Shown here piece after piece: positions 7,440 to 57,843 of a stretch of DNA of 64,000 nucleotides. The notes under the pieces are model-generated. The model saw only the letters and a program-made list of their open reading frames with translations, made no database searches and was not told the DNA's origin. Within the stretch, counting starts at the first letter, position 1, and each line of letters starts with the position of its first letter. Origin of the DNA: an uncultured Flavobacterium sp. (GTDB lineage Bacteria > Bacteroidota > Bacteroidia > Flavobacteriales > Flavobacteriaceae); contig CAYPSB010000002.1 of the NCBI GenBank assembly GCA_964413435.1, positions 9,189 through 73,188 of the forward strand. The letters run 5' to 3'. A program made the translations under genes and the position numbers.

Positions 7440-8528
7440 CTATTTTTTTAATTCTGAATACGGTTTCTGAATTAATTTTTGATAGTCAACAGGGTCAAAT
7501 TTGTTATCCGTAATTCCCCAATAGTATTTGTATTCGTTCCCGTTCCATAAATATTTCACGCCCGGAGTATCTTTACCCGATCCCAAAACTTTCCAGAACG
7601 GAATCACTTCAATGATTTTATACGGATATTCAGCACCGGCAAATTTGAAAAAATCCGGAATCAAATCGGCTTCTTCATTCATGAAAATGATGTAGATTTC
7701 CGGGAAGTTTTTATTGGTTTTTTTCATTTCGGTTAACTCCTTGGCTGCTTCACGGCAATGATCGCAACCGGGTACAAAAAAGCAAAGTGTTTTTCGGCCT
7801 TTATCAATATTGGCAAAATACTGTGCATAGCCCGATTTGTGTTTTTCAGGTTCGTTGCTTTCGGCTTTGACTTCATTTTTAAGCGTTTCTGCTTTTTTCA
7901 GTGTGTCTTTTACAATTTGAGTCGAAGTAGTATCAACAGTCGCTTCTGCTGTAGTGTCAACAACATGTTCTTCCGGAGTGGAAACCGAAAATTTACTTTC
8001 CATCGGCTGTATGGGAGCCAACATGAATAATGCCAGGATTGAAGCAAAAGTCACCGAAGTCAGTACCCAGAAATTGTCTTTCTTTTCATTAGATTTTGGC
8101 ATAATAACAAACAGCCAAACTAACAAAGCTATAGCAACTACGTTTTTGATGATGGCTTCTATGGGAGTCATGGGTAACAAACTTCCAAAACAACCACAGT
8201 TTCCGGAGTTACCGCCGTCTTGAATGGTTACTATGGTTAAATGCGTTGTAAATACAGCCAATAGTAATATGGTGCCCGGAATAACAATGCTTCGCAAAAA
8301 GTGTTTTTGTAAAATTAAAAAGCCTAAGGCAAATTCAATTCCAATCAATATTCTGGAGAAATAGGGAGCAAAACCTTCCGAAAATCCCATAGGATACAAT
8401 TGCTTTACTTCAAAAGTTGAAATGGCAAAATAAGGCGATGGGTATAATTTGGCTACAGCAGATAATAGAAAAAGGAACGAAATGATGATTCGGATTCCCA
8501 AGGCAGTATTGTTTTTGGATAAACTCAT
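7440..8528 (-). CDS. MauE/DoxX-like membrane domain fused to thioredoxin-like domain (BT_3928-like family)
   Basis: 362 aa. About 5 TM helices with a GNCGCFGSLLPM motif, a low-complexity T/E/K linker, and a C-terminal Trx-like domain with CxxC (FFVPGCDHC). Confidence 0.8.
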   Translation of the reverse strand: MSLSKNNTALGIRIIISFLFLLSAVAKLYPSPYFAISTFEVKQLYPMGFSEGFAPYFSRILIGIEFALGFLILQKHFLRSIVIPGTILLLAVFTTHLTIVTIQDGGNSGNCGCFGSLLPMTPIEAIIKNVVAIALLVWLFVIMPKSNEKKDNFWVLTSVTFASILALFMLAPIQPMESKFSVSTPEEHVVDTTAEATVDTTSTQIVKDTLKKAETLKNEVKAESNEPEKHKSGYAQYFANIDKGRKTLCFFVPGCDHCREAAKELTEMKKTNKNFPEIYIIFMNEEADLIPDFFKFAGAEYPYKIIEVIPFWKVLGSGKDTPGVKYLWNGNEYKYYWGITDNKFDPVDYQKLIQKPYSELKK

Positions 8529-52115: not shown

Positions 52116-53090
52116 ATGAAACGAATCGGATTAGTATTGCCATTGGATTATAAGCTTTTGAGTGTGGCGGCACTCTTGGAAGTGTTGGAAACTACCAATA
52201 AATTGGTTGTTCAACAAGGACAAGACCTTCCTTTCTCTATTCATTTGTATCAAGTGCCCGCTCAACTTGAAAGTGGTGAAGCTACTTTTCACGATTACAG
52301 CATTCAATCCGTAAATAAGGTTGGAGGCATATTGGATTTGATATTGATTCCTGCATTTACCACTTCGGATATGCAGGCTACCATTGGTAAAAACAGAGCT
52401 TATATTCCGTGGTTGCAGCACCAATATCAGGGTGGCGCTGAAATTGCCAGTTTTTGCTCGGGCGCATTTTTATTTGGAGCATCAGGCTTATTAAACGGAA
52501 AAAGTGCCACTACTCATATTGATGCCTGCCCGGCTTTTGCCCGCATCTTCCCCGAAGTAAATTTGAAACCAAACGAAACCGTTACAGCAGACAGCCGGAC
52601 TTTTACCAGCGGAGGATCAACTTCTTTATTTCATTTGATTATTTTGTTGGTACAAAAATATTGCGGACACGAAATAGCCATTCAGGTTGCTAAGTTGTTT
52701 GCCATTGATATGGATCGATACCAACAAAGTTATTTCGGTACTTTTCGACCAAATTATACGCATAATGATGCGCTGGTTTCTTCAGTGCAAGAGAAGATTG
52801 AGAAGCATTTTGATAAAATTGAAAGTTTAGACGAAGTGTTGCAAGATGTTCCTGCAAGCCGTCGCAATTTGGTTCGACGATTTAAACTGGCTACCGGTAT
52901 TCCACCTATCGAATACCTGCAAAATATAAGAATAGAAACCGCAAAACGACATTTGGAGCAAGGCCGCCTTTCGGTTTCGGAAATCATTGACAAGTCAGGC
53001 TATACCGATCCGAAATCATTTCGAAAGATCTTTCAAAAAGTAGTAGGGATGAAGCCGTTGGAGTATCGGGAGAAATTTAAAGTGCGTTAA
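52116..53090 (+). CDS. GlxA-type transcriptional regulator (DJ-1/PfpI-like domain + AraC HTH)
   Basis: 324 aa. The C-terminal ...IEYLQNIRIETAKRHLE...SEIIDKSGYTDPKSFRKIFQKVVGMKPLEYR is an AraC HTH. The N-half is GATase1-like. Confidence 0.85.
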   Translation: MKRIGLVLPLDYKLLSVAALLEVLETTNKLVVQQGQDLPFSIHLYQVPAQLESGEATFHDYSIQSVNKVGGILDLILIPAFTTSDMQATIGKNRAYIPWLQHQYQGGAEIASFCSGAFLFGASGLLNGKSATTHIDACPAFARIFPEVNLKPNETVTADSRTFTSGGSTSLFHLIILLVQKYCGHEIAIQVAKLFAIDMDRYQQSYFGTFRPNYTHNDALVSSVQEKIEKHFDKIESLDEVLQDVPASRRNLVRRFKLATGIPPIEYLQNIRIETAKRHLEQGRLSVSEIIDKSGYTDPKSFRKIFQKVVGMKPLEYREKFKVR

Positions 53091-53092
53091 TG

Positions 53093-54010
53093 TTATTTTT
53101 TCTCAATCCATAGACTACCACCAATATTCTGATATGTTAAAGGCATTTTTTCGTATACTTCTTTATGTAGCAAATGCATGTAGTGATTGAAGTATTTAAT
53201 TTCATACTGATTATTGTACATCAGAAACGCTCTTAGGATATAATCTTCATTCCAGTTGTACCCTCTGTAAATCCAGTCTTTCGGATATTCAAAGGGATAA
53301 AAGATATCATGAAAATGAATAATTACCCCGCTTTTGAGCGAAGGTAAAATTTCAAACAAAATGTAATTCACATCACTTCCGGTTTTGGTTACATGGGTAC
53401 TGTCCACAAAAAGGATGTCACCGGCGTTCAATTTTTCGAATACATCCAACGGGATAGTTTGTGCATCATTCGGAAAAATAGTGACGTTTTTTTTATCAGT
53501 TTCAGTTATCAGCGAGTACAGTCTCTCCGGATACGGATCGATGAACGTCAGCTTTATTTCATTGTTGAAAAACAATTCGTTGGTGTCAAGCATCAGGGCA
53601 GAGGTGTGTCCGGAACCGATTTCAATGATTTGTTTCGGTTTGTAATGACGTATCATGGAATACAAGATGATGCCGTCAGTATACGAATAGGATGAATTTT
53701 CAAACTGATAGCGTTGATTGTCATCTTTTATACTTTTAAAAGGCATTTCGTCATAATATCCTTCAAATGCTTTAGCCAGTTGTTTTTGATGTTCTGTTCT
53801 CAAATCAATTCCTGCAATTCCCTCAACGTTGAGGTTTTTCCATATTTGATCTTCCCGACTTTTAATTTCGGCAATGTTAAAAACCGGAGAATAAAAATGA
53901 CCGTTAGGAAAAAGGCACTGTTGCGACTGCTGATACAACGGTTTTATATAAGGCAGCTTGTTCAGTTGCGCTTTTATGAGGTTATAGATTTTAGTTTTTA
54001 ATTTCATCAA
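53093..54010 (-). CDS. class I SAM-dependent methyltransferase
   Basis: 305 aa. Motif I IIEIGSGHTSAL, LTFIDP and ILFVDSTH (Methyltransf_24/CmcI-like by eye). N-terminal FPNGHFYSPV motif. Confidence 0.8.
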   Translation of the reverse strand: MMKLKTKIYNLIKAQLNKLPYIKPLYQQSQQCLFPNGHFYSPVFNIAEIKSREDQIWKNLNVEGIAGIDLRTEHQKQLAKAFEGYYDEMPFKSIKDDNQRYQFENSSYSYTDGIILYSMIRHYKPKQIIEIGSGHTSALMLDTNELFFNNEIKLTFIDPYPERLYSLITETDKKNVTIFPNDAQTIPLDVFEKLNAGDILFVDSTHVTKTGSDVNYILFEILPSLKSGVIIHFHDIFYPFEYPKDWIYRGYNWNEDYILRAFLMYNNQYEIKYFNHYMHLLHKEVYEKMPLTYQNIGGSLWIEKK

Positions 54011-54055
54011 TTTAGATTTTCTTTAGTAGAGATTTGACAATGAAACTTTCTGAAT

Positions 54056-56680
54056 TTACATAGTTCCATCTTCGTTTTCTTTGTCCAGATACTCCTGAAC
54101 AATCTCAATGGCATTGGTTACCACATCACTCAAAGCAGTTATAAATGTACCTTCCTGAGCACTGTTGATGGCGTGTTTAATGGCCTCGGTTTCCTTGGTG
54201 ATGATTTCATGAGTGACTGATTTTCCCGAAGATTGTATGCCCTCCATGATTAGACCGATGATTTCTTCTTCGGTACGGCCTCTTAAATGTTTTTCCTGTC
54301 TGATGATGATGTGATCAAACATTCTGGCCGCAATGGTTGCACATTCTTTGATGTCTTCGTCGCGTCGGTCTCCTACACCGGCAATGATACCGATTTTTTT
54401 TGTGGCTTCTACTGACGATAAATATTCTTCTACACCGCGATATCCGGACGGATTATGCGCGAAGTCGATCATGACTTTGAATCTTTTGAAATCAAAAATA
54501 TTCATACGACCCGGCGTTTGTGCGGCACTCGGAATAAAGGTTTGCAATGACAGGCTGATGTCTTCGGTTTTGAATCCTTGTAAATACGCTGCCAGCGTAG
54601 CAGCCAAGGCATTAGCAATCATGAATTTGGCTTTACCACCCAAGGTTAACGGAACGTGTGTGGCTCTCTCAACCCTGATTTTCCATTCGCCTTTTTTAAT
54701 GGTAATGTACCCGTTTTCATAAACGGCCACAATTTTTCCTTCTTTGGCGAACTTTTGAACCGTAGGATTGTTCTCGTCTAAGCTGAAGTAGGCAATGTTG
54801 CAACTCAATTCGTTGGCAATTTTCAGACATTGCTCATCTTCGGCATTCAAAATGGCCCAACCGTCTTTTTTAACCGATCGGACCACGACACTTTTAACCC
54901 GTGCCAAATCATCTAAAGTATGAATGTCGGCCAAGCCTAAATGATCTTCTTGTATGTTGGTTATGATGGCAATATCGCAACGACTAAACCCTAAACCGGC
55001 TCTCAGGATTCCACCACGGGCAGTTTCTAAAACGGCGAATTCGACCGTTGGATCTTTTAAAATGTATTCGGCAGATAATGGTCCGGTAGTATCGCCTTTT
55101 TCCATCATGTGGTTTTGGATGTAAATTCCGTCGGATGTGGTGAATCCTACTTTGTATCCGTTGTTTTTAACAATATGGGCAATCAAACGGGTAGTGGTGG
55201 TTTTACCGTTGGTTCCGGTTACGGCTATAATGGGTATGCGACTGGGTTTTCCCGGTGGGTAAAGCATATCAATTACAGGAGCAGCCACGTTTCTGGGTAA
55301 CCCTTCACTCGGTGCCAAGTGCATGCGGAATCCTGGAGCGGCATTCACTTCAAGGATACAGCCTCCGTTCTCTTTGAGGGGTTGTGTAAGGTTTTCGGCC
55401 ATGATATCAATACCGCAAATATCCAGTCCTATGACGCGCGAAATGCGTTCGCACAGAAATATGTTCTCGGGATGCATCATGTCGGTCACATCTACTGACG
55501 TTCCGCCGGTGCTGAGGTTTGCTGTTGATTTAAGGTATACGATTTCTCCGTTTTTGGGAACGGTTTCTAAAGTGTAATTTAATTTTTCGAGCAAGTCTAG
55601 GGTGTCTCTGTCTACGTCAATTTCAGTCAGTACATTTTCATGTCCGTATCCGCGGCGTGGATCTTTGTTGGTTTCTTCAATTAATTTTTGGATGCTGTCT
55701 GAGCCGTTACCCACCACGTGAGCCGGAACTCTTTTGGCAGCAGCTACCAGTTTATTATCAATGATTAAAACCCTGAAGTCGAAGCCCGTGATGAATTTTT
55801 CTACTATGACTCTGCGGCTGTATTTTTGGGCATAAGCTAAGCCCGATACTGCATCTTCCCAAGTCACTACGTTAATGGAAGCTCCTTTTCCGTGATTTCC
55901 ATCGAGTGGTTTGATTACGATGGGGTAGCCTATTTTTTTTATGGTATTTTCTAAATCTTCTTCGTCTACACAAATACTGCCGCTGGCCACCGGAATAGAA
56001 GCCATATCAAGCATGCGTTTGGTTTCTTCCTTGTTACAGGCAATGTCAACCGCTATATTGCTGGTTTTGCAGGTAATGGTAGCCTGAAAGCGCATTTGGT
56101 TGATGCCGTATCCTAATTGTACTAAGGAGTTAGTTCCTAAACGAATCCACGGAATATCACGTGCTACAGCCTCATCAACAATACTTCCTGTCGAAGGCCC
56201 TAAACGCACCCGTTCTCTTATTTCGCGCATTTTTTGGATGTCGGCTTCAACATTATATGATGTGCCGGCTATTAAAGCTTCGGCTATGGCTACGGCGCTT
56301 TCAGCAGCAAACATTCCCACGCTTTCTTCGGTGTAGCTGAACACTACGTTGTATACCCCGGGTGTTTTAGTTTCTCGGGTTCTCCCGAAACCGGTTTCCA
56401 TACCGGCCAATGTTTGAATTTCGAGGGCAATGTGTTCAATCACGTGTCCCATCCAAGTGCCTCGTTCTACTCTTGAAAAAAAGCCTCCTCTAGTACCTTC
56501 GGAGCAGCGGTGTTCAATCATGGTAGGGAACATGGCTTCTATGCGCTCGCGGAAACCTTCAATTTTGTTAGTAGGCGATTGTTCCATTTCCTCCAGATCC
56601 AAACGCATTTGGATTAATTTTTTGCGTTGTACACTCCAAATATTCGGTCCGCGTAATGCTTGTATTTTCAGAATCTTCAT
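54056..56680 (-). CDS. cphA: cyanophycin synthetase (CphA1-type)
   Basis: 874 aa. N-domain MKILKIQALRGPNIWS...RLDLEE, central ATP-grasp, and a Mur-ligase-like M domain with P-loop VTGTNGKTTT. Confidence 0.92.
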   Translation of the reverse strand: MKILKIQALRGPNIWSVQRKKLIQMRLDLEEMEQSPTNKIEGFRERIEAMFPTMIEHRCSEGTRGGFFSRVERGTWMGHVIEHIALEIQTLAGMETGFGRTRETKTPGVYNVVFSYTEESVGMFAAESAVAIAEALIAGTSYNVEADIQKMREIRERVRLGPSTGSIVDEAVARDIPWIRLGTNSLVQLGYGINQMRFQATITCKTSNIAVDIACNKEETKRMLDMASIPVASGSICVDEEDLENTIKKIGYPIVIKPLDGNHGKGASINVVTWEDAVSGLAYAQKYSRRVIVEKFITGFDFRVLIIDNKLVAAAKRVPAHVVGNGSDSIQKLIEETNKDPRRGYGHENVLTEIDVDRDTLDLLEKLNYTLETVPKNGEIVYLKSTANLSTGGTSVDVTDMMHPENIFLCERISRVIGLDICGIDIMAENLTQPLKENGGCILEVNAAPGFRMHLAPSEGLPRNVAAPVIDMLYPPGKPSRIPIIAVTGTNGKTTTTRLIAHIVKNNGYKVGFTTSDGIYIQNHMMEKGDTTGPLSAEYILKDPTVEFAVLETARGGILRAGLGFSRCDIAIITNIQEDHLGLADIHTLDDLARVKSVVVRSVKKDGWAILNAEDEQCLKIANELSCNIAYFSLDENNPTVQKFAKEGKIVAVYENGYITIKKGEWKIRVERATHVPLTLGGKAKFMIANALAATLAAYLQGFKTEDISLSLQTFIPSAAQTPGRMNIFDFKRFKVMIDFAHNPSGYRGVEEYLSSVEATKKIGIIAGVGDRRDEDIKECATIAARMFDHIIIRQEKHLRGRTEEEIIGLIMEGIQSSGKSVTHEIITKETEAIKHAINSAQEGTFITALSDVVTNAIEIVQEYLDKENEDGTM

Positions 56681-56997
56681 AGTTAGGATGGTTAATGATA
56701 TGAAATGTTAATGATTTTGTTAAAAATAGAAAAATATTTGTTTGTTGGTACTACTTTTTTTGCACAAAAGTGAAAAAGAGGATGAGGCTGGAGTTTGGTA
56801 GCTTTTTTTGAATTTGATTTTCAGGTTTTTAGGAGTTTTGTGCTGCGGCAAAAATGACACTCAGACTTTATGAAGTGAGGATTTTCAAAATGCAAATTGC
56901 TTACAGATACAAAAGACGACAGCCGTTTAGCCCCGATGGGAGTGGCTACCGTGTAGCGCGGACAGCGGGAAAAGGGATTTCAAAAAGGCGCAAGCCA

Positions 56998-57843
56998 TTA
57001 CGCTTCTGCAATAAAATCGGCAATTTTTTGGTACAACTCGTCGTTGTGCAAGCTGTGACCGAATCCGGCGGTTTCGATGTAGGTGGCGTTTTTCCAGTTT
57101 TGAGCGTACATTCTGCCTTCGTCAACAAGTATCACATTGTCGTGCAGGTCGTGAGCGATGATGGCTTTTTGATGAAACTGTTTTGCGAACAAGTGTCCCG
57201 AAAAATCGTTGATGTGGATGTTGAATTTCTCAAAATAGTAGCTTTCCAGCAGAGATTGAATCTTGGTGTTCAGACTCAAAAGGCGAATGAAGTTATCGCT
57301 TATTTTCTTGAAACTGGAAGGAGCGCCCAGTAAAACGATTTTTTCGACATGGTCGTTTGGGTACTTGTGTAAGTAGTAGGTGATGGCAGCCCCGCCTATG
57401 GAATGGCCGATCAGTGTTTTGGGTTTGTATTTTTGGGCCAAAACATGGATGAATTCGGCATATTTCGGGGTATTGAATTCCTTTCCATCCGTGAGGCCGT
57501 GAGCCGGTGCATCGATGGCGATGATGGTATTGGGAAGTTTTTTGAGATAAGGTAGTATTTTTTTCCAGCGCGAGGCGTTACTTTCCCATCCGTGTACTAA
57601 GAGTATGACCTCATTGTTGCCTTCCCATTTGTAGGCTTGTATGTTTTCGTTATTAAAGGTAAACGTTTCTTGGGTGCTGTTGCGTAAGGTTTTGGGCAGT
57701 TTGTTTTTGTGGAGTCTCCCTTTTCGGGGCTGACTGAAAAAACGATAGGCTATTGTTTTGGCCTTTTCGGCATTGACATAACTCAGGCAGTTGAGGTAAA
57801 GGCCAATGGATTTGGTGATGAAGAAGAGTTGTATTTTTTTCAT
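56998..57843 (-). CDS. alpha/beta-fold hydrolase
   Basis: 281 aa. HGWESN oxyanion region, nucleophile elbow IGHSIGG, late GFGHSLH. Confidence 0.8.
   Translation of the reverse strand: MKKIQLFFITKSIGLYLNCLSYVNAEKAKTIAYRFFSQPRKGRLHKNKLPKTLRNSTQETFTFNNENIQAYKWEGNNEVILLVHGWESNASRWKKILPYLKKLPNTIIAIDAPAHGLTDGKEFNTPKYAEFIHVLAQKYKPKTLIGHSIGGAAITYYLHKYPNDHVEKIVLLGAPSSFKKISDNFIRLLSLNTKIQSLLESYYFEKFNIHINDFSGHLFAKQFHQKAIIAHDLHDNVILVDEGRMYAQNWKNATYIETAGFGHSLHNDELYQKIADFIAEA

Follow-up and report, generated by a model that had tools for sequence, protein, structure and literature searches.

The window analysed here is a stretch of 64,000 nucleotides from an uncultured Flavobacterium sp. (positions G000:C2:9189-73188, where G000 is the source genome and C2 the contig holding the window), and our subject is its cyanophycin synthetase gene, cphA, together with the gene for a class I S-adenosylmethionine (SAM) methyltransferase that follows it. 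A prediction made without database searches had described the locus as an orphan synthetase accompanied by a methyltransferase instead of a cyanophycinase. Our reading, which we hold with considerable confidence, is that cphA encodes an ordinary CphA1 enzyme, that the degradation genes cphB and iaaA were split off from it by an inversion, and that the methyltransferase is a fortuitous neighbour of glycan type, leaving cyanophycin metabolism conventional. The genes and spacers concerned are these:

54056-56680, minus strand: cphA (CphA1), 874 amino acids (aa), from the list of open reading frames (ORFs) and its translation
53093-54010, minus strand: methyltransferase gene, 305 aa from a TTG start; Pfam Methyltransf_24
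54011-54055, minus strand: spacer of 45 bp between cphA and the methyltransferase gene
56998-57843, minus strand: abH, an alpha/beta hydrolase gene; Pfam Abhydrolase_1, GHSIGG motif
56681-56997, minus strand: spacer of 317 bp between abH and cphA, apparently a new junction formed by rearrangement, its cphA-proximal part native to cphA
52116-53090, plus strand: FtrA-like regulator gene of the AraC family, its product also having a DJ-1/PfpI-like domain; Pfam matches to HTH_18 and DJ-1_PfpI, and a match to NCBIfam FtrA below the cut-off

The arrangement agrees with what had been described: coordinates and a simple scan place the 305-aa class I SAM methyltransferase downstream of cphA across a 45-bp gap without a terminator, and the ORF of the hydrolase lies upstream across the 317-bp spacer. 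The quoted motifs are all present in the translations, MKILKIQALRGPNIWS and GTNGKTTT in CphA, EIGSGHT and FVDSTH in the methyltransferase and GHSIGG in abH. The methyltransferase has an alternative start, an ATG at 54007 one codon after the TTG, which would give 304 aa, the length of the representative of its database cluster. Both cphA and the methyltransferase gene are single-copy in G000 by whole-genome search, and the methyltransferase gene is convergent with that of the FtrA-like regulator, their stop codons lying 2 bp apart. The pairing of regulator and methyltransferase recurs in three other genomes of the genus (G158, G260 and G161) and in none of the seven remaining genus genomes that carry the methyltransferase.

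That the protein is a full-length CphA1, as originally claimed, is borne out on every count. It scores 1272.8 bits on the curated equivalog model TIGR02068 (cut-off 850) over residues 2-864 of 874, and 1016 bits (phmmer) over residues 1-862 against the solved CphA1 structure 7lg5. Pfam places the N domain of cyanophycin synthetase (PF18921) at residues 25-137, a RimK/ATP-grasp domain at 216-321, and Mur-ligase domains at 487-698 (Mur_ligase_M) and 724-847 (Mur_ligase_C), with the GTNGKTTT P-loop motif in evidence. Identity to the CphA proteins of congeners is 85-99%, and ratios of nonsynonymous to synonymous substitution (dN/dS) of 0.009-0.024 indicate purifying selection. Judged by its sequence, this is the locus of an ordinary, functional cyanophycin synthetase 1, for which ATP-dependent polymerisation of Asp and Arg is predicted.

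No gene for a cyanophycinase or isoaspartyl peptidase lies near cphA; the observation on which the original prediction was founded stands, and extends from 42 kb to the end of the window at 64 kb (no match to Peptidase_S51, Asparaginase_2 or IadA in 20 ORFs scanned with Pfam and NCBIfam at 42180-63933). The genome-wide search for cphB, iaaA and iadA that had been proposed as a check does find degradation genes, on another contig. A cyanophycinase gene occupies G000:C1:47946-48740, its product scoring 226.9-227.1 bits on TIGR02069 (cut-off 126.6) and matching the solved enzyme 7uqv with an E-value of 5.9e-50 (phmmer), the GTSAGA stretch being aligned; the serine in this stretch we take to be the cyanophycinase nucleophile. 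Directly after it, at C1:48900-49709, lies an Asparaginase_2 gene of IaaA type, with 249.9 bits on PF01112 (cut-off 27) and 127 bits on the NCBIfam beta-aspartyl-peptidase equivalog, for which the cut-off is 567. No IadA exceeds the TIGR01975 threshold anywhere in this genome, which is 93.75% complete, the best of four matches reaching 27.8 bits against 331.25. Genome-wide, S51 and Asparaginase_2 matches fall only on C1 and C3, and none on C2, the window contig. The match on C3 is a second S51 gene (G000:C3:35122-35733), unlinked to cyanophycin genes, which scores 184 bits on PF03575 but no more than 25.6 bits when set against the model for cyanophycinase, and probably encodes a different S51 peptidase.

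Cyanophycin thus has conventional predicted breakdown enzymes in G000, and they are unlinked to cphA. The proposal that the polymer is degraded by unlinked or unconventional enzymes is therefore supported as to linkage, the enzymes being the conventional ones. Its premise, that cphA as a rule shares a cluster with cphB, a dipeptidase gene or both, holds only in part. In the survey published by Sharon and colleagues in 2023 (Sci Rep; PMC10206079), cphA1 and a cyanophycinase gene lie within 5 kb of one another in 535 of the 658 genomes possessing both and are unclustered in the other 123, while no more than 33% of 1614 cphA1 genomes have cphA1 in a cluster with a degradation gene of whatever kind. 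On these counts, an unlinked cphA is a known minority state.

Comparison with the rest of the genus indicates how this state might have arisen. Of 24 same-genus genomes sampled, 11 carry cphA, and around the cphA of these 11 we compared ORFs over about 8 kb per side where contigs allowed. In seven of the 11 (G019, G022, G002, G023, G003, G006 and G013) cphB-iaaA stands divergently beside cphA; G014 has cphB alone beside it, and G009, G024 and G017 have neither gene there. cphB adjoins cphA also in two genomes of other families (G030 and G039). One congener, on contig G013:C25, has two cphA genes (L048 and L049), 85% and 51% identical to the CphA of the window, with cphB-iaaA beside the first only.

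On C1, cphB-iaaA has the same genes to its right as has the pair in the canonical clusters of three congeners (G019, G022 and G023). To the left of cphB-iaaA on C1 lies a 270-aa RluF-type pseudouridine synthase gene, in the order RluF(-), cphB(+), iaaA(+). In G023, G024, G019 and G009 the RluF gene closes the series NIF3-CdsZ-abH-RluF, and in the window the series runs NIF3-CdsZ-abH-cphA, so that cphA occupies the place of RluF. The RluF-cphB junction is common to G158, G260, G161 and G017, and these same four genomes also have the junction of abH with cphA; in G260 the two lie about 1.07 Mb apart on a single contig of 3.27 Mb. The two junctions are reciprocal and, with the orientations of the genes, fit one inversion. 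A single rearrangement, we infer, separated cphA from cphB-iaaA and is common to at least five genomes of the genus. In most of the congeners examined, cphA and cphB-iaaA form one divergent cluster; in the lineage of G000 one inversion (or a reciprocal recombination of the same effect), with breakpoints in the spacer between cphA and cphB and in that between abH and RluF, would have brought cphA next to the NIF3-CdsZ-abH block and placed RluF alongside cphB-iaaA. The rearrangement is of modest evolutionary interest, for it would have cut the cluster exactly at its divergent promoter region and placed the genes for synthesis and breakdown roughly 1 Mb apart in a near-closed relative (G260).

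The proximal upstream region would have moved along with cphA. Three features of the spacer bear on this:

56709-56729, minus strand: conserved block of 21 nt, 28 nt before the cphA start codon; shared by rearranged and canonical loci in an alignment of the regions upstream of cphA
56723-56695, minus strand: sigma-70-like site from a promoter scan, overlapping the 21-nt block
56925-56976, plus strand: Flavo-1-like repeat at the junction, just past abH; 34 bits on Rfam RF01705, for which the gathering score is 42, E-value 1.7e-4

Exact copies of the 21-nt block stand upstream of cphA in G000, G158, G260, G161, G017 and G022, the last of which has the canonical cluster, and it is recognisable at this position in G019, G023 and G003. 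It may be a promoter element of cphA or the site of a regulator. Since the gene carried its own proximal upstream region along, it is probably regulated as before. The consensus of the Bacteroidetes -7 box, TAnnTTTG, has 93 exact matches in the window where 77.7 would be expected, an uninformative result; no match falls in the gap between cphA and the methyltransferase gene or, on the minus strand, in the spacer upstream of cphA.

The Flavo-1-like repeat belongs to a family with 44 matches to RF01705 in G000, 18 of them over the gathering score. In G023, where the spacer between abH and RluF is intact, that spacer holds a copy over threshold, and one of eight canonical loci scanned, that of G002, has a copy in the spacer between cphA and cphB (positions recorded outside the window are L094 11250-11318 and L042 5400-5469). 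The orientations of the G023 and G002 copies would fit an inversion mediated by repeats.

A different origin for the arrangement is that cphA, alone or with the methyltransferase gene, was gained horizontally and inserted between abH and the AraC-family gene, cphB-iaaA on C1 being a separate scavenging locus. The flanks of cphA do differ from those of most congeners, and the methyltransferase gene is a patchy accessory gene that in one Flavobacterium metagenome-assembled genome (L052) adjoins an integrase gene. Yet CphA is 85-92% identical to the CphA of congeners with canonical clusters, its 21-nt upstream block is that of the canonical G022, and the right flank of cphB-iaaA on C1 is the canonical flank. 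The RluF gene displaced from abH, moreover, sits exactly beside cphB, as would be expected after an inversion but not after an insertion, and no integrase or transposase was found with Pfam among the ORFs scanned at 42-64 kb. We therefore consider horizontal gain very improbable. In the particular form of a gain of cphA and the methyltransferase gene as a unit we reject it, both because the junctions are reciprocal and because cphA has its native block upstream.

The hydrolase gene might also be brought into the story, as an unconventional cyanophycin-degrading enzyme that has replaced CphB at the locus. It is co-directional with cphA, lies immediately upstream of it, and its product has a serine-hydrolase fold with the GHSIGG motif. 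But abH follows CdsZ in G023, G024, G019 and G009, where cphA is elsewhere, and is thus a backbone gene; the 317-bp spacer with a terminator-like site (simple scan) separates it from cphA, and the genome encodes a canonical CphB. We regard this role as so improbable as to be almost negligible, and we reject abH as a candidate cyanophycin hydrolase because it belongs to the backbone, as part of the NIF3-CdsZ-abH block, and is no cyanophycin gene.

There remains the methyltransferase itself. It matches Pfam Methyltransf_24 (PF13578) with 38.1 bits (cut-off 26.3) and no NCBIfam family, and its own family is large: of 5830 candidates, 5328 proteins match at E <= 0.001. NCBI and JGI give the family the names 'class I SAM-dependent methyltransferase' and 'predicted O-methyltransferase YrrM'. 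In an alignment of 31 sequences the SAM motif E-x-G-x-G is invariant at E130, G132 and G134, as are D198, D203, H206, H232, H234 and D235, which are specific to the family. D198, D203 and D235, together with the histidines, are candidates for the metal site that cation-dependent COMT/CCoAOMT-type enzymes form with an acidic triad. Also specific to the family are the N-terminal 90 or so residues, with a nearly invariant H38/Y40 motif. The dN/dS ratio is 0.02-0.04, again indicating purifying selection.

Searched by sequence against solved chains, the methyltransferase gave no match at E <= 1. An AlphaFold model built on 31 sequences, with a pLDDT (predicted confidence) of 91.3, places its core (residues ~94-305) with the COMT/CCoAOMT-like enzymes, TrmR, SpnH, MeT1 and CmcI, at Z-scores of 12.3-14.4 and root-mean-square deviations of 2.8-3.6 A. 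The fold is thus of Rossmann type, with a Z-score of 14.4 against the 7ud6 COMT domain and one of 14.0 against SpnH; Foldseek gives a probability of 1.00 to CCoAOMT-like O-methyltransferases. Two sugar O-methyltransferases, SpnH (rhamnosyl) and MeT1 (mannose), are within the top 12 fold matches. At rank 50 the background that Rossmann methyltransferases generally give is Z 10-11, which these scores exceed only slightly; they speak for the type of enzyme and not for its substrate. Protein isoaspartyl and protein arginine methyltransferases are absent among the best 50 fold matches listed, which excludes neither.

In a sample of 19 methyltransferase loci across phyla, cphA is nearby in two (L053 and L055), both from the same Flavobacterium clade, and in none of the 17 others. 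Ten of these 17 have as neighbours a glycosyltransferase, an FkbM methyltransferase, rhamnose-synthesis genes, an ABC-2 exporter or PMT_2; because L069 and L070 are duplicates, they amount to nine distinct contexts (L054, L056, L057, L059, L065, L066, L067, L068 and L069), and the remaining loci have unrelated neighbours. Within the genus, the gene stands co-directionally among GT2, GT4, UDP-GlcNAc 2-epimerase or GDP-mannose dehydratase genes in G248, G118 and G156, and two genes from a Poly_export gene in G231. Among all the loci examined, clusters for polysaccharide or O-antigen synthesis are the setting that can be recognised most often. Taken together, context and fold suggest that the methyltransferase is most likely a glycan O-methyltransferase, stranded here outside its cluster, which would act on a sugar of a surface glycan.

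The original prediction supposed instead that the methyltransferase modifies the polymer or the synthetase, and it proposed that the conservation of the pair be examined in relatives. As a functional partner of CphA1, co-transcribed with it, the enzyme might methylate cyanophycin (on the Arg guanidino group or a free Asp carboxyl), the dipeptide beta-Asp-Arg, or CphA1 itself. The two genes lie on the same strand, 45 bp apart, and the simple scan found no terminator-like or promoter-like site in the gap. The methyltransferase is under purifying selection, and the two genes are adjacent in G158 and G260 and close together in G161, across synonymous divergence (dS) greater than 0.7. Against this, an ortholog of the methyltransferase occurs in only 11 of 401 genus genomes, G000 included (E <= 1e-30), whereas cphA occurs in 173. 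When the surroundings of all ten other genus copies were compared, cphA was found to precede the methyltransferase gene only in G000 and three relatives:

G158: CphA 99% and methyltransferase 96% identical to those of the window; same contig as locus L055
G260: CphA 96% and 93% identical in two frames, the cphA frame being interrupted; methyltransferase 86%
G161: CphA 92% and methyltransferase 67% identical; a GAF/PAS gene between cphA and the methyltransferase gene; same contig as locus L053

The pair is accordingly confined to one clade, in which one of the four genomes has a gene between its members, and the supposed modification is not supported: the pair largely lacks synteny in related genomes, which the original prediction had itself named as a ground for rejecting it. 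Proximity or adjacency in four of the 11 methyltransferase-bearing genomes does not exceed background synteny, because the four are collinear over a whole block of about 20 kb, and the adjacency is uninformative beyond shared descent. The intervening gene of G161 (L053 5748-6890) encodes a 380-aa GAF and PAS_3 protein, whose best relative in G000, on contig C6, is 45% identical over 151 residues. The spacer itself is similar in G158, diverged in sequence and length in G260, and about 1.46 kb long, with the GAF/PAS gene, in G161. In G260 the cphA frame breaks (L081 ~7960-7980) at an A-run that counts five bases (A5) where that of the window counts six (A6), and the methyltransferase is intact. 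This speaks against a partnership, though the break may be either a sequencing or assembly error or a genuine frameshift or pseudogene.

G017 has the inversion and the same inverted cphA locus, but its methyltransferase gene is on another contig, between a thioredoxin-like and a DUF2200 gene. From this we infer that the methyltransferase came beside cphA after the inversion, within a subclade, and that a later, clade-restricted rearrangement would have made the two genes neighbours. Downstream of cphA in G017 there is a 152-aa gene and then an M23 peptidase gene. Genes of about 152 aa follow cphA in G017 (L029 3144-3602), G023 (L043 7000-7455) and G022 (L041 10456-10917), with mutual identities of 45-49%; they have no Pfam or NCBIfam match, and none was found in G000 (tblastn, E <= 1e-5). 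Such a gene is a commoner downstream neighbour of cphA than is the methyltransferase gene. With the distribution, the case of G017, the interposed gene, the rarity of cphA at the loci sampled across phyla, the recurrent glycosyltransferase neighbours and a fold like that of small-molecule and sugar O-methyltransferases all pointing the same way, a functional partnership with CphA1 appears very improbable. The methyltransferase gene is best seen as an accessory gene of sporadic occurrence and most likely a fortuitous neighbour of cphA; nothing points to an action on cyanophycin.

Several observations weigh against the interpretation that we prefer. Being co-directional and separated by 45 bp without a terminator-like site, the methyltransferase gene may be transcribed by read-through from the promoter of cphA. 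The two genes might thus share a transcript and, with it, have some link in function; read-through is compatible both with a fortuitous neighbour and with a functional partner. The adjacency persists across dS from 0.7 to more than 2, though collinearity is no less over the entire block of about 20 kb. In G289, G215 and G017 the methyltransferase gene lies outside any glycan cluster, so that the assignment to glycans is contextual and not universal. G000 is a draft in 108 contigs, where the inversion is deduced from its junctions and not seen on one molecule. And the 109-bp spacer between RluF and cphB on C1 contains no Flavo-1 copy (E <= 0.01), though one would be expected if these repeats had mediated the inversion; Flavo-1 as the recombination substrate therefore stays conjecture.

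In a more adventurous variant the rearrangement in this small Flavobacterium clade would have put a methyltransferase of glycan type under the cphA promoter, where it was co-opted to methylate cyanophycin or beta-Asp-Arg, yielding aspartyl methyl esters or methyl-arginine. If true, it would be the first natural modification of cyanophycin, but we judge it extremely improbable. Literature searches on cyanophycin combined with methyltransferase or methylated found neither natural methylation of cyanophycin nor a pairing of cphA with a methyltransferase. The methylation of cyanophycin that these searches did turn up, in a review (PMC8560796), is chemical only, with formaldehyde, and a transcriptome study of F. 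psychrophilum (PMC9723704) mentions cphA as co-expressed with proteases. The locus carries little weight beyond annotation. G000 has the complete conventional pathway of cphA, cphB and iaaA, and its record should neither call the breakdown genes missing nor credit the genome with a novel step of modification.

Nothing at this locus departs from known cyanophycin metabolism. The CphA of the window has the same N domain, ATP-grasp G domain and Mur-ligase-like M domain as the solved CphA1 enzymes 7lg5, 7wac and 7lgm, without notable difference, and only its genomic position departs from the cluster of cphA with divergent cphB-iaaA that is common among congeners. The methyltransferase shares its Rossmann core and the E-x-G-x-G SAM motif with cation-dependent COMT/CCoAOMT-like enzymes including SpnH (4cdz), MeT1 (6g7d) and CmcI (2bm8), and differs from them in the extra N-terminal 90 or so residues and in an identity of only 13-18% in structural alignments. 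Like the cphA1-cphB-iaaA clusters described in PMC10206079, G000 encodes all three steps, with cphB and iaaA adjacent; in having its cphA unlinked from cphB-iaaA it represents the minority state by comparison with those clusters.

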